A DNA stretch of 64,000 bases from Thraustochytrium aureum (Eukaryota), in assembly GCA_012862495.1 (NCBI GenBank), contig BLSG01000081.1, positions 107,186 to 171,185 of the forward strand, in the 5' to 3' direction. The translations under genes and the position numbers were made by a program. Shown here piece after piece: positions 8,052 to 55,599 of this stretch. A model generated the notes under the pieces. The model had not been told where the DNA came from. It ran no database searches and was given only the letters and a program-made list of their open reading frames with translations. The first letter of the stretch is position 1; each line of letters opens with the position of its first letter.

Positions 8052-10097
8052 ATGGCGACGGACGCGCAGATCAACGAGCTCGTGGGGTGGTTCGCGCAGG
8101 CCGCGCCATGGGTCACCGTGAACGCCGAAGCGCTCGCCGGCAGACTGCGCGGGTCCAGGCTGAGGTCTCTGGTCTGGCGCGCTGCCGCTGGCGCGCTGCC
8201 GCTGTGCGAGAGCCTCGAGGCGGCCGCGCGCGAGTGGCCCGAGTGCGCGAACGCGCTTCGGAGCGAGTACGCGGCGCTCAAGGTCAAGGTCACCGTGAAC
8301 CCGCACGAGGACGGAGCGGGCGGGGATCCGCTCATGGCTGGCGACCCGCTCGGCGCTAATGGCGGGGACAACGTGTGGGCCGCGTTCCACCGAGATAAGG
8401 AGCTGCTGGAGGAGATCACCAAGGACCTCACGAGGTTGTACCCGAACGGGTGTGGGGACTTTTTCTCGCACAAGCCAGTGGCAGACATTCTCAGGCAAGT
8501 GCTCTTCGTGTGGTGCAAGCTGCATCCCGAGACGTCGTATCGCCAGGGCATGCACGAGCTCTTAGCCCCGGTGTTCTTTTGCATGCATCGCGACGCGGTC
8601 CCTTCGCGGCTGCGCAGGCCGCCGGCGAGCGCGGCGAGCGAGCTAGACCCGCGCGCAGCCGCCAAAGCCGCGCTCGAGGACGTTTTAGACATGGAATTTC
8701 TGGAGCACGACTCGTTCTGGGTGTTTGAGCGCATCATGCGCGACATGGAGCCGCTCTTCCTGGTGGACAAGGAGGCGCGCATGTCGCAGCGCGAGATCAA
8801 GCGCGCAAAGCAAGCGCTCATCAAACGGAGTCGCCAAGGCCAGCTGGGAACGGCATCGCAAGCTGACGCGCCCGCCGCGGAGGAGAAGCTGCAGGGGCCG
8901 CTCTCCCCAGTGCTGCACTTTTCGCGCAAAATACAGAGCGAGCTGCTCCCGAGGTTTGACGGCGCCCTGCACGCGCATCTTGTTGCACTGGAGATCGAGC
9001 CACAGCTCTACGCCCTGCGGTGGCTCCGGCTATTGTTCGGCCGCGAGTTTCCCATGGAGCAAACGATGGTCCTCTGGGACAGCCTTCTAGTGGACGGCTT
9101 TGGGTTAGCTCGCCGAAGCAAGGACGCCTCCCTGGCCCACGGAGCCTGCAGTGGTGCGGCGGTCGCCGCCGCAGCGGCCGCAGCCGCCGTGGACGCCGCG
9201 CCAGCAGACCTGCAAAAGCTGGCTCGGGGCAGCCTCCCTGAGACGGCCTGCTACTTTGCGGTGGCCATGCTCTCATACGTACGCAGCCAGCTCATGCAGG
9301 ATGACTACAGCATGGTGCTCATGGAGCTTATGCGATACCCCGAGGTAGAGGACGCCCATGCCTTTGTGCATCTCGCCTTCAGCATCCGCAACGCCGTGCT
9401 TGGCGACGACGCCAAGACCGTGGTGCCCACGCGGCCAGCAGCGAGTCCTGGAGTTCTGGCAGAGCGCGCTATGCCCTCCTCCACTGTCGCGGCGCGCTCA
9501 GCCGTGCCGCCGTCGAGCTTTGCAAGGAGCGGAACCAAACCAGCAGCAGATGTCCCGGCTGCGGCCACCCTCGGCGGCGCAAGCGGTGCGCATCCGCCGA
9601 AGCCGCCACCACAACGCATCGCTCTTACGAACGACTGCGATCTGCCGGATCGCGATGCGCCCCGCGGTGTCGCGCACAACCCACAGTCGGAGGCGCGAGG
9701 GCAAGACGCGCCCCTTGCTAGCGACGTTGAGACTGCAGCTAGGCCGCGAAGCGGGAGCTCGTCACCGTCACCGATCGAGACGTTCTTCAAGGACCTCGGC
9801 GAGAAGCTTGAAAACATTTTTGACGCGCCCGAGAGCGGGACGCTGCAGAGCCCGCGCCGCGCTGAGGCAGCCGCAACTGCCCTGCAACAAAACAAAATGC
9901 TGCTCAGCATGCAACGCCGGATGGGCGACCGTCTTTCTAGCATCGCGAGTAGGCTCGAGGATGCCCTCGGGGCTCAAGACTCGGCCGAGGGGCAAGGCGT
10001 AGATGTTGCTCTGTCGCTGGTCGCTGAGGTCAAGCAGGTTCGTGACGTGCTGCTCGGCCGCGTGCTCGAAGAAGAGTGCTTCGCCACAGTTGTTTGA
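8052..10097 (+). CDS. TBC1D5: TBC-domain Rab GTPase-activating protein, TBC1D5-like
   Basis: LRSLVWR, DPL motif, ITKDLTRLYP (IxxDxxR arginine finger), YRQGMHELLAP (glutamine finger), LEHDSF, LYALRWLRLLFGREF, LWD. Confidence 0.85.
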   Translation: MATDAQINELVGWFAQAAPWVTVNAEALAGRLRGSRLRSLVWRAAAGALPLCESLEAAAREWPECANALRSEYAALKVKVTVNPHEDGAGGDPLMAGDPLGANGGDNVWAAFHRDKELLEEITKDLTRLYPNGCGDFFSHKPVADILRQVLFVWCKLHPETSYRQGMHELLAPVFFCMHRDAVPSRLRRPPASAASELDPRAAAKAALEDVLDMEFLEHDSFWVFERIMRDMEPLFLVDKEARMSQREIKRAKQALIKRSRQGQLGTASQADAPAAEEKLQGPLSPVLHFSRKIQSELLPRFDGALHAHLVALEIEPQLYALRWLRLLFGREFPMEQTMVLWDSLLVDGFGLARRSKDASLAHGACSGAAVAAAAAAAAVDAAPADLQKLARGSLPETACYFAVAMLSYVRSQLMQDDYSMVLMELMRYPEVEDAHAFVHLAFSIRNAVLGDDAKTVVPTRPAASPGVLAERAMPSSTVAARSAVPPSSFARSGTKPAADVPAAATLGGASGAHPPKPPPQRIALTNDCDLPDRDAPRGVAHNPQSEARGQDAPLASDVETAARPRSGSSSPSPIETFFKDLGEKLENIFDAPESGTLQSPRRAEAAATALQQNKMLLSMQRRMGDRLSSIASRLEDALGAQDSAEGQGVDVALSLVAEVKQVRDVLLGRVLEEECFATVV

Positions 10098-10160: not shown

Positions 10161-10400
10161 CTTTTAGAAAAGCGCCGACTCCGCAGGCTTTTGAAACCAC
10201 CGGGGTGGGAGAGGCTGGCTGCCCACGTCCTCTGCAGTCTGGAGTTGCCATCGAGCGCGGTCCGCTCGCTTGGACGGGGTCCACCGCGGCCAGCCCACTG
10301 GCCCCCTTTCACAAGAAACGAACAGCCGCGCAGGATTCTCCCGCGGTTTGTGGCGGGGCTTCTCCCAAAAAGGACATCTAGGCATCGAAGTAGGATGGGT
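10161..10400 (-). ncRNA. Candidate Fanzor omega-RNA scaffold
   Basis: Lies between the putative Fanzor stop (10378-10380) and the putative element end. Short inverted repeats seen: CGAGCG/CGCTCG (10252-10268), TGGAC/GTCCA (10271-10283), GGCCAG/CTGGCC (10288-10303), CCGCG/CGCGG (10326-10346), long-range GGGAGA/TCTCCC (10207-10212/10361-10366), AAAAGC/GCTTTT (10168-10192). The position matches known TnpB/Fanzor omega-RNAs. Confidence 0.45.
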
Positions 10401-12257
10401 GGATGGGTGGGTAACACCGTAATNNNNNNNNNNNNNNNNNNNNNNNNNNNNNNNNNNNNNNNNNNNNNNNNNNNNNNNNNNNNNNNNNNNNNNNNNNNNN
10501 NNNNNNNNNNNNNNNNNNNNNNNNNNNNNNNNNNNNNNNNNNNNNNNNNNNNNNNNNNNNNNNNNNNNNNNNNNNNNNNNNNNNNNNNNNNNNNNNNNNN
10601 NNNNNNNNNNNNNNTTTACCAGGACCAGGTCATAACCAGACTTAATGGCATGACGTTTGATCTTTTTCGTAGGCCCTCCAGGTGAGGTGCCCCTGAACCC
10701 CGTTGTCTTGCTCCCGTCTCCGATACCCAACGCCTTGGACTTGCCGTAGGTCACCCAGTTGAGCATGTCGTCGATAGCCTTTTGCTCTGCCATGCGTGCC
10801 TCCATCTTGAGTTTGAGGAACTGTCGATTGCTGTAGTGAGCATAGAGCGCGTCGTAATGCTCACATCGGACCAGGACCGCCTGACAAACTGCGTCAAGCA
10901 ATGTCGTCTTCAGTGTGTGCCCTGAGAGTGCGTTTTGAAGGTCTTGAATTCCACGGTCTCTCTGAAGAAGACGAACCTTGCGATTGACCTTGTTGCGCTT
11001 CGACTCCCGGTTGTAGCGCCATTTGCTGTAGTTGCGGACCTCGACATCCATGGTCCCATTCAGGCGACGAGCCCCAGTTGGCCGCACAGTGGTGAGTATG
11101 TTGTAGTGCCCGACGTCGGAGGCTACGAAGTTGCGCGGGTCGCGGATATCCAACCCGAGCTTGTTTTCAAACACGCGACGAGGGTCCCAGTCGCTGTTCT
11201 CAATCGTCATCTCAGCCGTGGGCTTTTTTGCACGCTTCGAGACAGGGTGCCTCGTCTTGTTCTTGTCGAAGGAGAAATGAAATTCGAACCCGTTGGTCTT
11301 CAGCGAGAATCCCGGGTCCCAGTCGGGTCCGCGCTTCGGGATGCGAAACCAGTCGCCCAAGTTTTTGTTCTGGTCATTGACCTTATTCCACGCGTGCCAG
11401 GCCCGCTCCTGCTCCGGTGTTTTCCACTTGCCTTTGTCACAAGGCCGTGTTCGGCTCCAGAGCGACTTGAGGCTTGTCTGATCGATCGTCACGAACTTGG
11501 TGCCGGGATGCCGCTCTGGAATGATAGTGAACGATCGCAGAGCCCTCTCGTCGGTGCTGCGACGCTCGATTTCCTGCATCATCGCGTAGCGGTACTCGAT
11601 GTACAGCCCGCTTTGGCGCACTTCCTGGTAAGTGAACCTCTCCAACATGATGATGTCGTGCAGGTCTGACTCGGGGATGTCGAGCGTTTTCGGCGTGCTT
11701 TCGTAGTCCAGGGGGTCATCTTCGTCTTTGACCATGATGCGACCACAGATGAACTTGGCATGACCCTTGTACCGGAGGTCGTATTTGCAGCGGATGTACT
11801 GGACCATGTGCTGGTACAGAGCTTTTTTGTTGTACAGTTCAGCAGCAGTTGCCATCTCAGTCGCCGCGAGCATGGGGATATTTCCATGGTTAGCCGTGTA
11901 GACGAGTCCCTCACGATCACCCCAGAGTTGGTGATAGGCTTCCTCAATGCCCAACTCAGCGCACTTCTTTTTCGTAGGCTGATAGCACCCAGCCATCACT
12001 CGGCAAATGCACAGGTAAAAGAAGTCCTTGTCCAGCTTGGGGGCACGTTGCCCTCGACTAAGCTTCATCGTCACGCATGTAGTGGCCAAGAGATTGCCGT
12101 AGTACGCAGCCTTGTTTGCTTCAGGAACGACCTCCCGAATAAGATCGATCAGTTCCGGGACTTTGCATTTCTCTTTCGACGCTGGCACACAGACAGTGGA
12201 GTCCCTGGTACGCTGGTCCAGAGGAAGGCTCTCGCCTTCCCGCTTCTTCTTCCCCAT
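10378..12257 (-). CDS. Fanzor1 (eukaryotic TnpB-like RNA-guided RuvC endonuclease), about 625 aa; RuvC-II Glu, Zn finger and RuvC-III fall in the gap 10424-10614
   Basis: Starts MGKKKR (NLS-like). Fanzor1-type segments: LIREVVPEANKAAY, FTIIPERHPGTKFVTIDQTSL, FSLKTNGFEFHFSF, RuvC-I FVASDVGHYNILT (Asp codon 11115-11117), LYAHYSNRQFLKLKMEARMAEQKAIDDML, LGIGDGSKTTGFRG..GGPTKKIKR...GYDLVLV up to the gap. After the gap one frame reads LRCYPPIHPSYFDA*, resembling the RPxxF C-terminus. Intronless. Confidence 0.88.
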
Positions 12258-14048
12258 CTGCGTTTGGGGTCTGCCGGAGTCGCGGCATGCCAGCAAGTTG
12301 CCAGCCTGGCAGTTTTTTTCTGGAAGCTTCAGCTTTCCAGTTTTTCTGGAAGCTTTGCGATTTTGAACACGGTACCTTTTTGAAAATGATGTGGTTGGTG
12401 GTGTTACTTCCCTAAAAGACGGGGGGTGCNNNNNNNNNNNNNNNNNNNNNNNNNNNNNNNNNNNNNNNNNNNNNNNNNNNNNNNNNNNNNNNNNNNNNNN
12501 NNNNNNNNNNNNNNNNNNNNNNNNNNNNNNNNNNNNNNNNNNNNNNNNNNNNNNNNNNNNNNNNNNNNNNNNNNNNNNNNNNNNNNNNNNNNNNNNNNNN
12601 NNNNNNNNNNNNNNNNNNNNNNNNNNNNNNNNNNNNNNNNNNNNNNNNNNNNNNNNNNNNNNNNNNNNNNNNNNNNNNNNNNNNNNNNNNNNNNNNNNNN
12701 NNCTTACGTAAAGAGTCCATTTTCTCGTGGATTATTTAGTAAGAAAGTACACACCCCATCGCGTACCATCCAGTTCGCTGTGTTCGAGTGAGGACATGGA
12801 AGGCCAACTCTGAGTACTCACTCTACCAGGTACTCGCTCGGCAGAGAGTGAGTGCCCGGCGGCACCACGCACACTGCCAAGTACCAACGGTATTTGGACC
12901 GCGAAAGACGGCGTAGGCCTAAAATAACAAAAGGTGGGCAGCCACAGCTTGGAGGTGCAAGGCAGCTTCGCGTTGCCGTTCTGCCTGCGCGCGCGGCGAT
13001 CCGCCGAGTTGAACTCAGGCGAGCGAGTTCAGGGCCGTTGAGCGAGCGAGCGAGCGAGCGAGCGGAACTCTCGGCGAGATGTGTCAGCTCGCTCCGTGAC
13101 GCAGTTGCAGACAGCAAGGTGCAGACAGCAAGGTCGACTACGTACGCGTTTGCAGATCGGAAAATCCAAGAAATCAACCCTCCAGCCGGCGTCGGACTGG
13201 TAGAGCCGCAGATGGCGTGTCCTTGCGCTGGCTGGAGCACGCCTTGCCGGGGTGCATGCGCCCGCCCCGTTGTAGCCCCTCTGTAGGCCACAGTAGAGTG
13301 CCACGAGACGAGACGGATGGTGGTTTTGCACGCTGCTTGCGATGCAATGTCTACTGCACGGCGCTCCAGCGAATCGTTGCGGACAAGCCCAAGTCGTTGT
13401 TGTGAACCGACCGAACACACGCTCGCTGGAGCATGTTCGTTTGCGTGCGGCTTGGCAGAGCGAGGGCGGTCTGGACCGCCAGCTGCGGCCGGCTGATGGA
13501 TTCCGACCCGCCGGCGCAAGGCAGTCATGCATGGCGTTTGGGCATGCTCGCGCCCTTGGGATCCGCTTTGGCACAGTGTGTGCAGGACTAGACAGCGCCT
13601 CAGGCTGACCGGGCTCGGCTTTGCACCGCTAACGATTCAGTTGTCGACAGACGCTACCAGCTAGAGATTTTCTGGTCTTTGCGTTCGAGCCATGAGCGAG
13701 GGAGGGTGGTTTTGTCGCGCGCAACCAGTCGTCCCGCACACCTGGGCAAAGTGAGTATTGTGCAAGCTAAAAAGCTTTGCCCGCCAGGCAGCCGGTGCGC
13801 CTCGCGTTTCAGCACCCGAAAAAGAAGAGAGCCTTTTGCAACCTTTTGCATTGGAATGGATTTCGGCCGGTGGCAGCTCGGTAGTTCACCGGTAAGCCAG
13901 TTTTCTCCTCGGTGACCGAAAGTCGCCCGGTGCAACCCCGGCAGTGATAGCAAGCGAGGCATGACTGGCGGCAGACCCAGAGAAGCTTGCTGCAGCAGAC
14001 CAGATTCATTCAACGACGTTCGACCTACAAGACAACTCGAGACTCGTC

Positions 14049-17340: not shown

Positions 17341-20300
17341 TCAAGTCGCTGTCGCTGCTGCAGATGAGGGCGGTGAAGCTTCTTGTCCTGGCTGGCGGCG
17401 CCGATAAAAAAGCACATAAGCTTGCGGTGAGACGACGCTCTCAGGGCTCGCCTCTGTCGTGCGCGAGTCATCCATGAGGAACCACTTGCGCGACTCGACG
17501 TTCTTGACATAGGCCGTGTAGTGGCCGCCGCCCATGCCGCCAATGTGGTTCGACACGCCGTACAAGTCGTAAATGGGCTTGGGCTGGTCTGGTGTCCAGC
17601 CGCGGATGTACGAGCTTAGGTCGAGGTTCGTGCGCGGGAACTCGACGAGGTCTCCGATCTTCTCGCGGTCGACCCACGACCGAACATACTGGTTGCGCTC
17701 GTAGTAAAACCGCTTGAGGTGCACGACGAGGATCTCTGGCGCAGTCCAGAGATCCATCTCCTTGAACGCTCGTACGAGGTCCTTGCACTTGGGGCAAAAC
17801 CACTCGTCGTTCTCCCCGAGCTGCTCGCGCTCGCGAAAGCGGTCAAAGCACATGTAGATGTTGAAGCCGTCATCGCCCCGGCTCGCGTGCGCCTCGAACG
17901 AGGAGTCGTGCTTGACCTCCCCAAGCCCGTAGTCCAGGTCGCGCTCCTCCACAGAGCGCGAGGACCCATAACTGCGCGCGTCGGCCCCAGCGCGGTCGGC
18001 GGGCGAAAGCCTCTCCGCCAAGGCCTCCAGCCCTGTATCTGTAAAGTGAACACCGAGCGTCGACAGAGTCGAGTTCCACTCCGTGTCATCGCACGCCAGC
18101 TCGGTCTTGCCGTACCCGCTGCACAGGACATACGGCGGGAGGTGGCCTGCACGGATGAGGCGCTCCGCTTTGGTTTCCTCGTCCTCGGTGGCGTCGCTCG
18201 CCTTTGACTTTGGGCTGCGCAGCGCCTCGGGCCGGTCTGCGTTCCCGTCCGCGGCTGGTGGCGCCGCGGCGCTCGACTTTAGCGGCTGGCTCTGCGCTGC
18301 CCTCGTCGTCACCTTGTCGAGGAAGCTAATGGGCGGCTCGTAGGACTCGTCAAACATGAAGCGCACGCGGTCCCAGACCCTTTGGTGCAACTCGCGGTGA
18401 GTCACAGGGTGCTCGACCACGAAAAAGTCCGGCAGGCGAAAACACTTGCTTGACTTGTGCGTCTCGAAAAAGCGCACCTCCACGAGGCTCTCTTCCACGA
18501 TAGGCTCCTCCGCCGCTGGGCCGGCGAGGCTATAGCCCGTGGTCATCCCGTTCTGGACAGGGTTGCGCATCTCGAGGAGTGCCTTGTTGGTGCTGCTGCG
18601 CATCGAGGCCGCCGTCGCTCGGCTGTCCGCTGAAGACGAGGACGCTTGCGAGGCGGCAGCGACGGAAGCGCGAGCGAGCGGGCGCGCGAGCTCGTAGGTG
18701 ACGATGTCTACGTCCTCGTCAAAGGTTTTCTCCAGCTTGTCCCTGAACGACCTGTAGGCGGGCCGAGGCGCCTCCTCCTCGACCGGGTTGAAGGCATAGC
18801 TGTGCTGCTTGTTGCCGCTGCCGATCTCGACCAAGAGCAGCTCGCGCGAGGGGATGCCCGTCAGCTCGCTGATCGCCTCGGCGGCGTCCTTGCCCTGCGC
18901 TCCTCGCTTCAGCTTGACCACGTAACGAACGAGGCGCGGCGGGCCCGAACCGCTCGCGTTGGGGTACAGGACCACGTTGTAAGCAACAGGGCGATCGTTG
19001 GGGATCGGGACGCTCCAATTCGAGTAAGGGTCAAACTTGACCGCCTCTGTCTTGCACCGCGGGCACGTCAGGTGCGAGCGCAAGAGGCCCATCATCGTGT
19101 CCACCACAACGCTGTCGTTGCGCTTGCGAAAAACCTGCCAGGACTCCTCGGCGATCTCGTGGTCTGGCCGCCCGTTCGGCTCGACGCCTTCCGTGTATGG
19201 CTTGTTCTTGACCCGGTTCAGGTCTTCGTGGAGGCCGTCGACCAGGAGGGAGAAGAGCTCATGCGAGTCTTGCTGCTGGTAGCCCTGGAACTGCGTGAAT
19301 GCGCGCCCAAGCTGCTGCTTAAAGTCCGTCGGGGAGATCACGGGAATACTTGTCGCTCCAGATGTCGTGGAGGAGGGCAGCGTAGGCCTCGGCCAACTTG
19401 CCACCCGTACCCAGAGGGTTCTTCCGGTTCAGGTCGCCTTCGTAATCGCCGCGCAAAAAGTAGTCGGTCAGCGGCAGCGTGAAGCTGAGACATTGCAGCA
19501 TCGAGTTCATGAAGCACGTGTTGCCGAGGTTGCGCAGCCCAACGACACCGCTCGCGGTTGGCGCCTCTTCGACGCCCTGCGGGCCAAAGCTCGTCTTTGG
19601 CTTGGTTGTGTGGGTGTATCGTTGTGCGATCTCCTCAGAGTCCAAGTCGACCCAGGCCTCTTTGCGCTGCGACATGAATGTACCCGTGCGGATCTCGACA
19701 AGCACGCTCCCGCGCGATGCGTCGCGGCCCTGTTCTGGGCCGTCAAGTGCGTCGGGTCCATTGCGCACTGCAGAGCCGCTCTTGACCTCTGTCCGCATGC
19801 GCTTCGCCTCGCTCTCTTCTTCGGCGTCAACGGCTCCGCCCTCGCGGGGGGTCTGGGGCGCGGAATCAGGGGGCGGAGGCCTGGCCCCGCCCCGGCGAAA
19901 GCGCTTCACTTTGGCGACTAACCAAGTGCCTTTGCCGCTGGTTGCAGAGGCAGATGAGGACGAGTAGGACGAGTATGTGTAGGAGGAGGCGTACGACTTT
20001 GGTGTCGTGGCGCGGCTCACAACGGACCGGTGTACCTCGACCTCTTCCTCCTTTCGCAGCTGCTCGCGCCAGTCTGGGACACGCGTGTAGGGCCCTTGGA
20101 GGCTGTCCTCGTCCGCGACGTCAAAGTCCTCGTCATCCTCTTCTTCAAATGAGAGAAAGTGCACACGAACCCGAACTCCATCGTCGAGCACCTCCACGAC
20201 AACGCCCTCGTGCCACCTCGAGTCCTTGCGCCGCTTGGCGTCGACTCGCTGCCCTACTTGCGGCCCCGCGCGCACAAAGGAGGCGGCTCGTCGCCGCGGC

Positions 20301-20932
20301 GCCGATCCGGGGCCGGGCGGCGCGGGGCTGTCGCGGGGCCAGGATTTGGCCTTGTCGGCTCTGACCTCGACGAGCAGCTTCCACGTCCCGAGGCCCGTGA
20401 GCACGTCGCGCACCTCTTCCTGGTACACGTCGTCTCGGACGAGGTTGAACTCGGACGATCCTCCCTCGCAGACCCAGAACCGCGTCTCTGCGTCAGGTGC
20501 AACCACCGAGCTGATGTGCTTGCGCGCCTTTTCGGCGATGCTCTTCACTTTCCCGGAGCGCGGGATAACCAGCTGTGGGAGCCCGCTGTCGCGGGCCTCG
20601 GCCTGCTCGTGGCTAGGCCCTGCCAAGTAGACGTGAAACCGCACGGGGAACATGTCCACGTAGACCTCGCCCTTGCTGTTTCGCACGGCCAGGCCACCGA
20701 TCTCGTCCGTTGTGTCGTACCACTCTTTGAGGAGCTCCCAGACGCCACTCGGTTTGAGCACATAGTCGCGTCCCTCCATGAGTCCGCGCTCCTTGAGCAC
20801 GCGCTCGCCGCCCTCGTCCTGGTCGGCTTCGGTGATGTCCGAGTTGTCGACGACCTCGGGGTCGGGCCCCTTGCCCTCCGTAAACTCCAGCCACGACCGC
20901 CACCACACCATAGAAACAGCATAGTACCGCAG
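17341..20932 (-). CDS. Ubiquitin-specific protease, USP4/11/15-like (DUSP, UBL-like, Tudor-like, split USP catalytic domain); 5' end in gap; 1-nt frameshift at about 19343
   Basis: DUSP: YYAVSMVWWRSW...VDNSDI...LMEGRDY...WELLKEWY. Cys box GLRNLGNTCFMNSMLQCL; QQDSHEL; LHEDLNRVKNKPY; WFCPKCK; HLKRF; His box YDLYGVSNHIGGMGGGHYTAY. An extra base in GGG 19342-19344 separates the two ORFs. Confidence 0.92.
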
Positions 20933-49676: not shown

Positions 49677-52344
49677 GTTGCTTTTTCCTGCTCGCAATTC
49701 AAGCTCTTGTTGTCGGACAAGCGACGCTGCTGCCTGCTCGACTGCCTGCCTGCCTGCCTGCCTGCCTGGGCGCGCGTGCCTGCGACCACGACTTCCTGCT
49801 TGGCTGCCCGCCCGCACTCTAGTTGGGGTTCGAGACGGCACGGCTCGACGCCTTGCGAGTCTGTGTGTCTTTTGCGTCCCCCTTGCCAGCCTTGCAGGCA
49901 CGTAGAGATGCAGCAGAGATCCGCTTCGCCGGGCGGCAGTCCTCTACGTANNNNNNNNNNNNNNNNNNNNNNNNNNNNNNNNNNNNNNNNNNNNNNNNNN
50001 NNNNNNNNNNNNNNNNNNNNNNNNNNNNNNNNNNNNNNNNNNNNNNNNNNNNNNNNNNNNGGCACTGAAGGTGCTCACCGTGAAGCTAGTCCGCCGAGCA
50101 TCTCAACCGACACATTGGCCCAAACCGCGCCCGCCGCTCCGAATCGTGTACAGCACAGCGACCAGACGTGCCGCCGTGGCGCGCCCTTTCGCAGCCGCAC
50201 GGCGTGATAACGGAACGCGAGTGCGCGGCATAGGTTGTCCGTTGCATTTCTGCGACCGGTCATCGCTTGCCTCCCAGCGAGAGAATGGCCGAGAGCGATG
50301 GTTTACAACCGGCAAGTCGTTCGTGCAAGCAACGCTTCTCCGCGTCCTGAATCTGCGGCCGACGCCGAGCTCGACGCCGCGCTCGGACTGGCTGCGAAGC
50401 GGCAAATCGGCCTGCTCGAACGCCCTTTGGTCAGAGACCGACGGAGGCCGTAACGGACAAACCCAAGCAAACAGAGGAGCAGGCGCATAACAGCGGAGGA
50501 CTCGGCTGCCGACCCTCTAATACTGCGTTGACCCTCTGTACTCTTTGGCGACGCGAGGCGAGTCGTGAACCATCAGTCAAGTCAGCCAATGGTCTTGATT
50601 GAAATCAGGCTCCGAAATGTCCAATCAACTCTGCTCTTTGTGCAAAGCAGCAAGCAGGTCAGGTGTCTACCCAAAGGCTTCGGTAGGTAAGTAGGTGCAG
50701 TCACGGTAGGTGGAAGGCGGCGGTGGATGCAGCTTCCGCGAAAGAGGGAGCGCGCGGCTCACGAGCAGGTGGGTCGGAGGGAGCGTCCAGGATTCTCGGC
50801 AGCGTTTCAAAGCCGCTCTTTTCCCGTTCGCCCGGCCTCACCAATTCTCCTTGGCCTCACACGCACCGTCTCAGCAAGCCACTGGCAAATGCGATGGACT
50901 CGGACGACAGCTCACCAAATGGACTCGGATGCCTCACTGAATGGAAAATAAAACGCCTGCACTTCAGTTTGAAAGCGAAGGCAGCTAACGCAGCACAACG
51001 CTGGCAGCTGCGATGCGATGCGATGCACCCAGCTGGGTGACGAGCACCGAGCCCATGCAGCGAGGGAAGCGTCGGATGACCCGGATCCTCCTCGCTGCCA
51101 CCAAGGTCGAGCACGCTGCTTATTTCGATACGCATGATCGCTCGTGGGCAGGCGCTCACGGCGGCCGATGCTCGCGCGCTCGCCGGTCCATCGTGATCGC
51201 AGCTGCGAGCCAAGCGTTGCCGCGGCCTGCGAAACGGACAAGTCATCAGGGGGCAGATCCGAAAATTTCGTTCGCGGGTTCGTTTGTTTGTGGCGAGACG
51301 GTGCACTTGGCCCAAGGCTTGCGACGACGAGCCTCCGAAACCCGGCGCCCTCACGGGGCAAACTCACTGCAGGCCAACCAATAACTCACTTCTGTGCTGT
51401 TGGCTCCACCAAGGAGGACCTGCACTCGAGTCGAGCGCTGGTAGTACGAGCAGAATGCAGCTCTGCGCTCGCCCCTCGCCCGCCTCCTCTCGTTCACCCC
51501 GGCGACGAGGCGCAGCGAAACGAGCGAACGGGCGGGCGTCGAAAGGGGGGAGCGAAATGATAAGATCACGAGGACGACGTGAGAGTATGCACAAGTCAAT
51601 TTGGGGAGGAGTGCCAGTGGGCAGAGCTGGTTCGTACGGTACTCTACTGTGTCTGTCTACAGGCAAGCCGCCGATTACGGTAGAGTAGAGTATTGAGTAC
51701 TTACTCTGCTCGACTTCACACGCTCCTTCCTGCGCGGAAAANNNNNNNNNNNNNNNNNNNNNNNNNNNNNNNNNNNNNNNNNNNNNNNNNNNNNNNNNNN
51801 NNNNNNNNNNNNNNNNNNNNNNNNNNNNNNNNNNNNNNNNNNNNNNNNNNNNNNNNNNNNNNNNNNNNNNNNNNNNNNNNNNNNNNNNNNNNNNNNNNNN
51901 NNNNNNNNNNNNNNNNNNNNNNNNNNNNNNNNNNNNNNNNNNNNNNNNNNNNNNNNNNNNNNNNNNNNNNNNNNNNNNNNNNNNNNNNNNNNNNNNNNNN
52001 NNNNNNNNNNNNNNNNNNNNNNNNNNNNNNNNNNNNNNNNNNNNNNNNNNNNNNNNNNNNNNNNNNNNNNNNNNNNNNNNNNCACAGTTTTTTGTCCGCC
52101 GAGCCTGCCTCCTCAATCTCGCCGCGCGAAATCGAGGGAGGTACATCTGCCATTCTGAGTACGCCAGGGGTTTGATTGCACCTGTTTTCGAAGGACAAGC
52201 GGCACGGGCCCCCGCGAAAGAAAGCGTTGGTTTGGATTCCAAGGTTGATCGCAGACCCGCATCACGAAGCACTTTCGCGCCCAGCGTCCCGAGCGAGTAC
52301 CAAGAAGACGCGCTTCGAGTCGTGCAGCGAAGCGCGACGCTGCG

Positions 52345-55300
52345 ATGGCGCCCACATGGCCCGCTGTGCTGCGCGGAGCCGCGCTTGTCGCTCTAGGGCT
52401 GGCGGCACTGGCGCAGGGCGAGACCTTCGTTGCAGTGCTCGACTGCACCTCTGCGCAATTTGACGGCGGCTTCAACCAGATGATGAGTGAAGGGCTCGTA
52501 GAAGCCGTCGATACAGCAAACAGTGGCGGCAAGGCAGTGCAATACAGGTTCGTCTCTACCTGCAAGGCTGAAGGCGGCCTTGCCGCTCTCCTTAGTGACG
52601 CGACTCTGGATGTGCAACACGTCTTCCTGAACGGGTTCAATGTCGTAAGGGAATACGATGACTACATCACAACCTACAAGAATGTCCGCTTCACGGCGAT
52701 CGACGAAGTGCCCAAAACGCTGGCCAGCAACGTGCAAGCTGCCCTCTTCGCTGAGGACGAAGGCTCATTCGTGATCGGCGCGCTTGCTGGGCTCTACGCC
52801 AAGCAAGCCGATCCTAGCGAACTCGCCCCAGTCGTTGGCGCCGTTTTCGGGACGCCGTTTCCTCCGCTCAAGCGCCTCCGCAACGGGTTCCTCCTTGGTG
52901 TCCGCCACAAGTGCCCCAACTGCATTGTCATCTCCGACTACATCTGGTCGTTCAGCAACCCCGCACTCGGCGAGCGCGCAGCAGCCAACCTGACGGAGCT
53001 CGGCGCCAAGATAATCTTTGCCGCTGGCGGGGAGACGGGCGTCGGCGTGCTAAAGTCTAGCAGCAAGCTGTCAGTTCCTGTGCTCGGTGTTGACACGGAC
53101 CAGTACCAGACAGTGTTCAACGGCAACGCAACGGAGGGTAAGTGGATCGTCTCTTCCATGCTTAAAAAGGTCGACGCCACAGTGAAGCGCGTCGTCAAAG
53201 ACCACCTGTCCAACGTTTTCCAAGGCGGCAAAACGATCACGATGGACTACGGCAACGACGGCATTGGCCTCGCCGAATGCCACGAGGCCTGCGCGTTCTA
53301 TGACCGCGAAGAGGTTGGCAAGGTCGTAGAGAACATGGAGGTTGGTCTTGTGAGGTCTGGCGTAGACAGTGCGAGTGGCCAGGTTTTGCAAAGCTCGTTC
53401 TACAACCTCGAGACACTCCCGGACAACAGCTGGACACCAGTTCAGACTTTCGGCGAGCAGCCCGATGCGGTTGTCGACGCTGCCTCGGGAACTGTAGCCA
53501 TGCTTGGCGATACAGTTATGCTCATGTATGGCGGCACGACGGAAAATGCTCCCAAAGGAACAAACACGCTTTGGAGCTTCAACGCGGGCAGCATGTCTTG
53601 GGCTCGCCCGATGCTGGACCTCAGCTCGGAGGAGCCGGGGAACCGGCACTCGGCGACGTTCACGGGTGTGCAGTGCGACAGCAACGACAGCAACTATGCG
53701 ATTCTCATTGGAGGGGTGAATGGGTCAGAAATCGTTGACGATGTCTGGCGCCTCGATCTCCCGGACACGGTATCCTCGCCCTTGTCTAGGTGGACGAAGC
53801 TCGAGCCCGTCCCAGGCAATCAAGGACCAGGCAAGCGCGAGGGCCACTCTGCCGTTGCAGTCAATTGTGGCATCTACGTGTTTGGCGGGCGCGGAGATTC
53901 CGGGGCTCTGCAGAACGACATGTGGTACCTCGACACGAAGACAGGCAAGTGGGATTTGGTCTGCAGCAACTGCGGCCCTCCGAACCGATGGTATTCTACG
54001 CTTGTGTATTTATCGGATCAAAGTGCACTGTATCTGCACGGCGGCCGCGACGGCCAGCGCGCGCTGCTTCGTGATACCTATCGCTTCGATCTGGAAAATA
54101 AGGAGTGGACGCTGAAAGCCGAAGCGCCGGTCTCCCGCGCTCAGCACATCGCGGTCGAGTTCCTGGTCCGTCCACCAGGTGGCGAAAGGCAAAGGGTCAT
54201 GGCGGTGTCGGGGGGCGACGTTGGGGAAGACACCACGCAACGCGAAAGGCGAAGCGTTGCTTACTACCTTCCTGTGGAGGACAAGTGGATCCTCGTTGCG
54301 AGCTATCAGGTTGTCAAGGACTCTGCGTGCCCGAGCTCTACTGCCGCCCCCTCCACGGACGAAGGGAGCGGGTTGCCGGCCGATTTTGTTTCGCGTCGAT
54401 CGCACGTCGCCTTTGCCCTCCCAGACCCCTTTGATTCGCGTAGCGACCGCCTCGCCGTGTTTGGCGGCACAAACACGAACATCGGCGAGTCACTGAGGCG
54501 ATTCGAACTGTTTCATCCCAGCGAGACAAGCGTCATACCCAATCTCAACCAGCTCGGGTCTCTTGTTGGGGCGCTATATTCGATGTTTGCGATATGCGTG
54601 CTCCTCGCCCTTTCGCTCATCGTTTGGGCGCTTAAAAAGAAGGAGCACCAGGTGCTGCGAAGCGCTCAGCTACCCTTTTTGCTCATGATCGCAGTGGGCG
54701 TGATCATCTCCTCGCTGTCGATCGTCACGATTGCGGTGGACGACAGCGGCGATGAAGAGGATCTCGCTTTGAGTGGCGATTACACCGCAGGGAACGCGGC
54801 GTGCATGGCTAGCGTTTGGCTTTTCGCGACAGGTTTCATCTGCTCCTTCGCACCCCTCTTCGGCAAGATGTGGCGAGTTCACAAGATCTTTTCGGACACC
54901 AAGATGAAACGCATCATCATCAGCAACGGCCAGCTCATCAGGATTTGCCTTGGTCTCCTGGTGATTGAATGGGCCATCGTGCTCGCCTGGCAGATCCAGA
55001 GCCCGCTGCGCTACGAGCGCCGCGCGGTGCAGCTCGACGAGTACGAAAATGTTCTCGAGTCGGTGGGTACCTGCCGAAGCGACAACTCGACGCCGTACCT
55101 GTTCACGTTGCTTGCCTTCCACCTGTGCATCCTGTTCTACGGCAACTTTCTCAGCTGGAAGGCTCGCAAAATCGACGTTCGCTTCCAAGAGTCGAGCGGC
55201 ATTTCCATGGCACTCATTGCCAACCTGCAGGTGCTCGCCCTCTCCATACCGGTTCTGATACTCGTCTCTGACAACCCCATGGCGCTTGCCACTGTGCTCA

Positions 55301-55599
55301 GTGGTGTGATTTTCCTCAACAACGTCTCGATCCTCTGCTGCATCTTCATCCCGAAGGTGCTCATGGTTCGTTCCGGCAAGTACAACAACGTCTCGTTTAC
55401 CGATAGCTCCAGAGATGAGACGATCAAGCCGCGCTCGTCCCTGTACGGCAAGTCTTCGCTCAACAACACGTACGATGGATCGCATTTCGCATCGTCGTAC
55501 GTGGGCAAGGAAGTTTCGGACTTTTCTGTTGGGCCGCCGGACTCGCCAGCGCCGTTTCCGCCTGCAGAGCTGGGCAGCTCGCAATACAAGTACGTCTAG
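52345..55599 (+). CDS. Chimeric class C (GABA-B-like) GPCR: signal peptide + BMP/PnrA-type solute-binding domain + Kelch repeats + 7TM
   Basis: BMP motifs DGGFNQ, FAEDEGSFVIGALAG, IIFAAGGETGVG, GVDTDQ, SSMLKKVD. Kelch motifs LMYGG, ILIGG, REGHSAV..IYVFGG..NDMWYLD, LYLHGG. 7tm_3 motifs LFGKMWRVHKIF, FQESSGI, IFIPKV. Confidence 0.88.
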   Translation: MAPTWPAVLRGAALVALGLAALAQGETFVAVLDCTSAQFDGGFNQMMSEGLVEAVDTANSGGKAVQYRFVSTCKAEGGLAALLSDATLDVQHVFLNGFNVVREYDDYITTYKNVRFTAIDEVPKTLASNVQAALFAEDEGSFVIGALAGLYAKQADPSELAPVVGAVFGTPFPPLKRLRNGFLLGVRHKCPNCIVISDYIWSFSNPALGERAAANLTELGAKIIFAAGGETGVGVLKSSSKLSVPVLGVDTDQYQTVFNGNATEGKWIVSSMLKKVDATVKRVVKDHLSNVFQGGKTITMDYGNDGIGLAECHEACAFYDREEVGKVVENMEVGLVRSGVDSASGQVLQSSFYNLETLPDNSWTPVQTFGEQPDAVVDAASGTVAMLGDTVMLMYGGTTENAPKGTNTLWSFNAGSMSWARPMLDLSSEEPGNRHSATFTGVQCDSNDSNYAILIGGVNGSEIVDDVWRLDLPDTVSSPLSRWTKLEPVPGNQGPGKREGHSAVAVNCGIYVFGGRGDSGALQNDMWYLDTKTGKWDLVCSNCGPPNRWYSTLVYLSDQSALYLHGGRDGQRALLRDTYRFDLENKEWTLKAEAPVSRAQHIAVEFLVRPPGGERQRVMAVSGGDVGEDTTQRERRSVAYYLPVEDKWILVASYQVVKDSACPSSTAAPSTDEGSGLPADFVSRRSHVAFALPDPFDSRSDRLAVFGGTNTNIGESLRRFELFHPSETSVIPNLNQLGSLVGALYSMFAICVLLALSLIVWALKKKEHQVLRSAQLPFLLMIAVGVIISSLSIVTIAVDDSGDEEDLALSGDYTAGNAACMASVWLFATGFICSFAPLFGKMWRVHKIFSDTKMKRIIISNGQLIRICLGLLVIEWAIVLAWQIQSPLRYERRAVQLDEYENVLESVGTCRSDNSTPYLFTLLAFHLCILFYGNFLSWKARKIDVRFQESSGISMALIANLQVLALSIPVLILVSDNPMALATVLSGVIFLNNVSILCCIFIPKVLMVRSGKYNNVSFTDSSRDETIKPRSSLYGKSSLNNTYDGSHFASSYVGKEVSDFSVGPPDSPAPFPPAELGSSQYKYV

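Follow-up and report, generated by a model that had tools for sequence, protein, structure and literature searches.

A Fanzor1 gene, likely intact, in an insertion with an element-free allele

Is the Fanzor-like reading frame on the minus strand of contig BLSG01000081.1 a working RNA-guided nuclease, and what might such a nuclease do for the DNA that carries it? We analysed a 64,000-nucleotide stretch of this contig (the window, whose own numbering is used throughout), in which an open reading frame (ORF) with the marks of a Fanzor lies next to an assembly gap. We consider it likely that this is a Fanzor1 gene in an insertion of ~2.35 kb that other genomes lack here, and that it encodes an intact RNA-guided nuclease predicted to cut the empty allele and thereby to safeguard its own element.

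Identity and active site of the gene

A preliminary description of the locus had named the gene a Fanzor1, and structural comparison agrees. An AlphaFold model of the truncated window protein, P0001, was obtained (predicted local distance difference test score [pLDDT] 74, predicted template-modelling score 0.73), and all seven of its Foldseek matches at E<=0.001 are Fanzor1 chains (E ~1e-10, template-modelling score 0.55–0.60). Alignment with VIA gives Z scores of 18.5–22.4 to Fanzor1 (root-mean-square deviation 4.4–5.4 over 409–462 aligned residues), with ISDra2 TnpB next best at 8.5, so that the structure search proposed in the preliminary description returns Fanzor1 well ahead of TnpB. P0002, a full-length relative that is 80% identical, was also modelled (pLDDT 82.5) and aligned to 48,161 chains; the Z scores are 21.1 for GtFz1, 11.4 for the best Cas12f, 10.5 for TnpB and 9.6 for the mimivirus Fanzor2 (ApmFz2). 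A Fanzor2 or IS607 identity was rejected on this comparison (9.6 to Fanzor2 vs 21.1 to Fanzor1), and no serine recombinase was found among the window ORFs scanned, nor is there room for one within the insertion.

Sequence relatives lead to the same family. A search of the 50% library recovered 104 relatives at E<=0.001, and profiles of the closest ones match the Parasitella Fanzor1 (PpFz1) at E 2.5e-6 and 9e-9. All six close relatives (606–657 aa, 35–80% identity) carry PF07282, the TnpB/Cas12f zinc ribbon, in the part missing from the window copy, and the full Asp-Glu-Asp triad is present in relatives. Two other candidates were set aside: DUF4164, which P0001 matches in Pfam below threshold only, and the DUF8286/transposase clusters of an Atlas search, whose low recognition is weak and was not used. 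That the window ORF is a Fanzor1 is, in our judgement, almost certain. The features of the gene are as follows.

10617–12257, minus strand: readable Fanzor1 ORF of 547 codons, with WED, REC, RuvC-I and helices, ending just ahead of the RuvC-II Glu
12240–12257, minus strand: start codon and basic patch MGKKKR, a likely nuclear localisation signal on sequence grounds
11289–11297, minus strand: TNG at the position of the Fanzor1 WED motif TDG (residues 321–323), from an alignment of 58 rows
11115–11117, minus strand: RuvC-I catalytic Asp381, in DVG rather than DPG; an invariant alignment column, aligned with the Asp of the PpFz1 DPG
10424–10614, minus strand: assembly gap, in which the RuvC-II Glu (codon 549), the zinc finger, the RuvC-III Asp, the stop codon and most of the omega-RNA scaffold should lie

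Translation of the minus strand from Met 12257 to the gap edge gives 547 codons with no stop, and the segments quoted in the preliminary description (the MGKKKR start, FVASDVG, the helix and GIGDGS...GP.KKI...GYDLVLV) are all present. The lower GC content that it reported is likewise seen: the ORF has 54.8%, the window 61.4% and the TBC gene next to it 65.5%. So is the lack of an intron, since a contig of a putative RNA run aligns gap-free on 10615–12135. Five of the six close relatives also have basic N-termini, for which Fanzor descriptions suggest a role in nuclear localisation (PMC10530073; papers cited by PMC number were available in part, and statements resting on them apply to those parts).

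Fanzor1 has been described as carrying DPG "near exclusively", a typical mark more than a strict criterion, with TDG as its WED motif (PMC10711439), and its published motif is D-X(125-275)-TS-XX-C4 zinc finger-X(5-50)-RD (PMC3627910). We aligned 58 of 110 collected proteins, those of 480–900 aa (57 relatives and P0001). The RuvC-I Asp occupies all 58 rows, in the triplets DPG (43), DVG (8), DKG (4), DPN (2) and DTG (1), and the WED motif reads TNG in 39 rows, TDG in 11, SNG in five, SDG in two and TNA in one. Of the 57 relatives, 56 have a residue in the Glu column, 53 have a credible RD and 53 retain the whole triad; in the six closest, the D, TS, four Cys and RD are all in place. On a FastTree phylogeny six DVG proteins, P0001 among them, form one branch (SH 96), nested in a clade that also contains proteins with DPG and DPN, although DVG overall requires three changes and need not be one clade. 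DVG thus appears to be a subfamily trait, derived within the family, and not damage to the window copy.

The catalytic Glu of SpuFz1 is residue 541 (PMC10432273), and residue 547 of the P0001 model aligns to SpuFz1 residue 539 in VIA, which would put the Glu of the window copy at codon 549, barely within the gap. The RuvC-II of Fanzor1 is rearranged, with an alternative Glu shortly ahead of the zinc finger in place of the canonical one, and in the window copy there is no Glu in the strand ~40–50 residues upstream (LGIGD), the canonical RuvC-II position. Further copies were sought in public sequencing runs (labelled X1, X2 and so on to X10; the joints and loose ends described here are among the matches listed). 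A 92%-identical sister copy in X1 continues into the gap as DEWGTSK, including the Glu, when its loose contig end is translated. In P0002 and P0003 the codon preceding the Glu is one for Asn, with which the two bases of the window that border the gap agree. Searching other copies for the missing motifs, as had been proposed, therefore yielded the Glu from the X1 sister and the TS, four Cys and RD from relatives, and did not recover the sequence of the gap at 10424–10614 from a near-identical copy. We regard the window copy as probably complete in its catalytic residues; the wording "apparently intact" in the preliminary description is one that we reach by inference, the catalytic tail lying in the gap.

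The insertion and its element-free allele

In the DNA run X1, 10394 and 12745 adjoin on a single 372-nt contig (short side 59 nt, one base of ambiguity), which makes the intervening DNA, ~10395–12744, an insertion; we hold these boundaries with good confidence. A weaker element-free joint, 10352–12824, with 21 nt on the short side, is found in X5, a run from another study. Both X1 and X5 carry the Fanzor1 gene on other contigs, and the contigs that carry P0002–P0004 are 2337–2386 nt long, matching the size of the window element. No transposase was seen in the insertion, which has space for the Fanzor only. Its parts, and the flanks that adjoin it, are listed below.

10395–12744, minus strand: whole mobile insertion, ~2.35 kb, Fanzor-only, from the X1 contig joint; boundaries may slide 1 nt
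12745–12749, minus strand: host flank, predicted target-adjacent motif (TAM) TACTT, from the X1 joint position
12703–12744, minus strand: left end of the insertion, containing a 41-nt hairpin, imperfect (12703–12743), that stops 1 nt short of the boundary
12258–12702, minus strand: 5' leader, with a 15-nt direct repeat (12315–12329, 12341–12355) and a 273-N gap
10395–10423, minus strand: right end, the last 29 nt of the insertion, missing from the element-free allele; predicted 3' end of the omega-RNA scaffold
10380–10394, minus strand: host flank, predicted guide of 14–15 nt, from the X1 joint position and the SpuFz1 guide rule

Contigs from X1 and X7 bridge 12429 to 12703 and so span the leader gap. 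The frame that stays open upstream of Met 12257 is likely non-coding, because other copies lack one base at 12348. At the left end, the 41-nt hairpin has z scores of -2.3 (plus strand) and -0.9 (minus strand); the X1 copy does not share its outer arm. The right end is separated from the ORF by the gap, and a link across the gap is assumed; a search of Rfam with this region gave no match. At this end the insertion shows partial complementarity to the flank beside it, and the two fold together (10375–10405, z -2.8, plus strand), a fold that could sequester the predicted guide, or else the true end could lie further out.

No terminal inverted repeats were found, with one to four of 15 terminal bases matching in six registers, and their lack counts against a DNA transposon of the kind bounded by such repeats (Mariner, hAT, MuDR, Sola). 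Two outer inverted repeats, 10216–10226/12934–12944 (11 nt) and 10116–10134/12957–12975 (19 nt, 84%), were rejected as ends because 52 such pairs exist and these two fall beyond the limits of both element-free joints. Just outside the insertion, a hairpin-like stretch at 12812–12859 behaves as a dispersed repeat, with X3 loose ends on both sides and the X5 joint at 12824, and is possibly an older small mobile element.

The Fanzor1 gene is carried by a multi-copy eukaryotic mobile element with variable flanks. Loose ends and diverged pieces, 79–92% alike, occur in X3, X4, X5 and X8 and show that there are several further subfamilies.

The hidden tail and competing explanations

The preliminary description had closed the protein with HPSYFDA* at a length of about 625 aa, and neither survives. 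The frame exists, as one of three after the gap, but it is mostly host flank: 10378–10394 is retained in the element-free allele and hence lies outside the insertion. Its tail bears no likeness to those of the four closest relatives (96–164 of 300 shuffles score equally well), and it leaves 79 codons, or 239 nt, to the stop, whereas the nine closest relatives need 89–117 more residues (270–354 nt). Judged from these relatives, the expected length would be about 636–664 aa. Another post-gap frame scores slightly above shuffles against the tails of two relatives (5 and 11 of 300; two of 12 tests) and was rejected as the Fanzor1 tail, being without the conserved GGPRP motif.

The true size of the gap at 10424–10614 is likely greater than 191 nt. 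For the upstream gap the assembly gives 273 N, but contigs of two runs put it at 80–82 nt. This is an excess of 191–193 nt, by which the downstream gap may in turn be too short; if the total span is right, we infer a downstream gap of ~380 nt, in keeping with a tail of 95 residues and ~100 nt of 3' RNA. A 99.1%-identical X4 contig extends 596 nt beyond 10615, and near-identical copies thus have a long 3' part. Near-identical C-terminal fragments (short) were also sought, and the 21 candidates gave one match, of 52%.

Most differences between copies are silent. In comparison with the X4 copy there are eight silent and five replacement differences (13 of 14 differences listed), with a ratio of replacement to silent change (pN/pS) of 0.19 (p 0.003), and in comparison with the X1 sister there are eight silent and one replacement (nine of 13 listed); pN/pS is still ~0.2 if every unlisted difference is a replacement. 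Traces of transcription are also present. X10, on record as a polyA metatranscriptome that may contain DNA, has a 262-nt match with one difference, and ORF depth is 214–897 in three runs guessed to be RNA. The ORF exceeds the TBC gene ~80–100x in X2 (897 vs 8.9) and X3 (287 vs 3.6) and is about equal to it in the DNA runs X1 and X5, a comparison that is a hint only since contig depth cannot rank genes and the RNA status of the runs is a guess. Within X1, 10618–10775 is represented by a 92% variant at depth 16, ~3x the depth of 5–6 for the 99% 5' part, which suggests 3' over-representation or mosaic copies.

Several points weigh against a likely intact, mobile Fanzor1. The catalytic Glu, zinc finger and last Asp of the window copy fall in the N run 10424–10614, as the preliminary description had rightly warned, and so does the omega-RNA; the nominal distance from the ORF edge to the boundary, 220 nt, is too short for a tail of 270–354 nt. 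Searched by itself, P0001 has no match among PDB sequences or in Pfam and NCBIfam. In the window copy Val takes the place of the Pro of the DPG fingerprint, and the zinc finger of the relatives is CC...CxxC, its first Cys two residues later than in the published motif. The boundary comes from a single X1 contig of depth 2.7, the X5 joint implies other boundaries, near a dispersed repeat, and the X1 copy diverges after 12732, 12 nt ahead of the inferred left end. The hallmarks of Helitron2, discussed below as a possible mover, are partly present, the longest inverted match at the 3' end being 5 nt in 29 visible bases. Finally, no homing experiment with a Fanzor surfaced in a literature search made at the level of listings.

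The alternative that best survives, although we think it unlikely, is that the 3' catalytic part of the window copy is lost or broken within the gap and that this Fanzor1 is dead while other copies live. The nominal 220 nt of gap and right end would then be a true shortage, the protein tail alone requiring more, and it is also the case that the X4 contig, which runs far past 10615, has no sequence on 10200–10567. Gap sizes here are unreliable, however, as the other gap shows, and a right end of 29 nt is likely too short for seeding, so its absence from X4 says little. A reading frame of 547 stop-free codons with a pN/pS of ~0.2 also counts against a dead gene.

A cut-and-paste transposon ending at 10393 is, in our estimate, also improbable. 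An exact 5-nt direct repeat flanks both junctions and would be a 5-bp target duplication (10388–10392, 12745–12749), the X1 allele an excision footprint comprising both duplicates and 2 nt, and the guide would begin after the duplication; Fanzor1 elements with target duplications but without terminal inverted repeats have been described (PMC3627910). By chance, however, 5.6% of randomly drawn position pairs have such a repeat no more than 3 nt from each junction, the ends have no inverted repeats, and the filled allele would hold the same 5-mer before the target, risking self-cutting.

It is very doubtful that the gene is misplaced, as a collapsed repeat contig scaffolded between two gaps. The ORF contig (10615–12429) is indeed flanked by gaps on both sides, the family is multi-copy, and the filled allele at the right junction was seen in no run; but in the window 12703–12732 continues without a break into unique flank, two runs link it to the ORF contig, and both 10395–10423 and 12703–12744 are extra sequence relative to the X1 allele. 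Least credible of all is a domesticated or non-cutting Fanzor serving the host as an RNA-guided binder or regulator, for which purifying selection, the very high depth of its contigs in the three putative RNA runs and the altered DVG motif could be cited, since alleles with and without the element, together with several subfamilies, typify a mobile element and the catalytic residues are retained across the clade.

Proposed homing, relatives and setting

A likely intact Fanzor1 in an insertion suggests a simple cycle, which starts from what is observed (the fold, Asp381, the element-free allele, the subfamilies and the mostly silent differences) and borrows its later steps from Fanzors that have been studied. 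The omega-RNA of SpuFz1 is a 75-nt scaffold followed by 14–15 nt of flank that serve as the guide (PMC10432273), and Fanzor1 TAMs are AT-rich and 4–5 nt long (PMC13565253). By analogy, a transcript running through the right end (10395) would give an omega-RNA whose last 14–15 nt, ~10394–10380, are the guide. The protein would enter the nucleus and read an AT-rich TAM in the left flank (TACTT or part of it), which adjoins the target only in the empty allele. Because TAM and target meet only there, the nuclease would cut the empty allele, by its Asp-Glu-Asp RuvC site, and repair from a filled chromatid or homologue would copy the element back. Homing has been reported for the TnpB of IS200/605 and IS607 (PMC13565253), and by that analogy we lean, by a modest amount, towards homing as the role of the window Fanzor1.

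The element itself would be non-autonomous. It probably depends for its movement on an enzyme acting in trans and able to do without terminal inverted repeats; our leading guess, a tentative one, is a rolling-circle enzyme of Helitron2 type. The CRe-1,2,3 Fanzor1 Helitron2 elements of Chlamydomonas (PMC3627910) resemble the window element in being Fanzor-only, in lacking terminal inverted repeats, in their variable 5' ends, in having a 5' T after a T-rich motif and, less surely, in a hairpin 0–2 nt from the 5' end. The window element differs from them in being intronless, in having no RepHel in the window and in a 3' hairpin of only 4 bp, and the asymmetric inverted repeat of Helitron2, 20–30 nt from the 3' end, was not found in its 29 visible bases. 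SpuFz1 elements have 30-nt inverted repeats (PMC10432273), whereas the window element has none. As a protein, P0001 has the same fold over residues 15–547 as SpuFz1 (8gkh, 9ceu/y/z), PpFz1 (9cf0/1) and GtFz1 (9cer), a similar size and the same register up to the RuvC-II Glu, at only 11–16% identity; DVG and TNG stand in place of the DPG and TDG of the solved Fanzor1 proteins, and the relatives' zinc finger is CC...CxxC. Fanzor2 and IS607-type TnpB (ApmFz2 9b0l, ISDra2 TnpB 8exa/8h1j) have in common with it the RuvC superfamily and the omega-RNA principle and differ in giving a far weaker structural match (Z 8.5–10.5), and neither a serine recombinase nor TnpA lies near the window Fanzor1.

The closest relative on record appears in a census of 3,655 Fanzors (PMC10530073, Data S1) as Fanzor50_1834, of family4, which we take to be a Fanzor1 clade. 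It has a near-identical N-terminus, is collinear over its first 400 characters at ~60% identity (estimated by eye, not computed) and belongs to a different subfamily, and no experiment on it was found in the literature covered; the frame upstream of its Met is alike too, so the 5' leader DNA is common to both. Motif searches in supplements of PMC10711439 and PMC10432273 (searchable files, possibly incomplete) gave no match. The preliminary description had thus been right to call the gene probably uncharacterised in that no experiment was found in the literature searched, while the catalogued relative qualifies the claim. We conclude that the window Fanzor1 is a new, probably live addition to a known family.

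Viral contig scans gave no relative, a metagenome scan gave one partial relative (L001) and a GTDB scan one (L002), and neither helped to delimit the omega-RNA. L001 (1–2183) holds a 47%-identical Fanzor1 3' half in which the zinc-finger Cys are lost and the RD is kept. It adjoins a heliorhodopsin gene (PF18761, E 4e-22), and the contig also has a 177-aa ORF that by eye is capsid maturation protease-like, without Pfam support. The pairing recalls mirusviruses, and L001 may be a virus-borne member of the clade. In L002 (1–1519) an AT-rich Fanzor1 3' half abuts a GC-rich bacterial exonuclease gene (PF00929) on a low-coverage contig of a metagenome-assembled genome; both genes seem cut near 835, and it is most likely an assembly chimera and not a bacterial Fanzor1. 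With this one chimeric-looking contig, no intact prokaryotic Fanzor1 locus was found in the GTDB scan. A further protein, P0094 (1740 aa), has a Fanzor-like RuvC region at residues 1474–1618, at the end of a very long chain; it may be fused to a transposase or helicase, and might then give a clue to the partner enzyme.

The setting among eukaryotic housekeeping genes, also part of the preliminary description, is confirmed by Pfam scans of the window ORFs, with a match at E<=0.001 in 17 of the 24 further ORFs scanned. The neighbours include RabGAP-TBC, WD40, Pol delta Cdc27, methyltransferase, USP, RPN1 and CDC45 genes, and the RabGAP-TBC gene, which ends at 10097, is tail-to-tail with the Fanzor1 ORF. 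No second Fanzor copy was found within the 64-kb window. Intron-poor genes and the match in a marine polyA library suggest that the host is a unicellular eukaryote. Elsewhere in the window, one frame of 1116 codons (52249–55596) has the unusual architecture of a Bmp/PnrA-type substrate-binding domain, Kelch repeats and the seven-transmembrane domain of a class C G-protein-coupled receptor, and a DUSP-UCH deubiquitinase (17344–20932) is divided between two overlapping minus-strand frames, 19322–20932 and 17344–19428, possibly by an intron, a frameshift or an assembly error.

Fanzors are compact programmable nucleases of which thousands are catalogued, and one more gene is modest news. The main value of the window copy lies in its pair of filled and empty alleles and in its DVG active-site variant. 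The element-free allele gives a concrete prediction of TAM and guide before any screen, and the strictness of the published Fanzor fingerprints can be gauged against the DVG, TNG and CC...CxxC motifs. A bolder possibility, which we put forward with reserve, is a currently mobile and very highly transcribed DVG Fanzor1 family on an unclassified element without terminal inverted repeats, with filled and empty alleles among strains of one eukaryotic microbe. Should the strong transcription and the polymorphism at which the public runs hint hold for the family, it would offer a way to test the role of a Fanzor in its native eukaryotic host, and if the homing proposal is true, a natural system in which Fanzor-driven homing, i.e. 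a gene drive at the empty allele, could be observed directly in a eukaryote.

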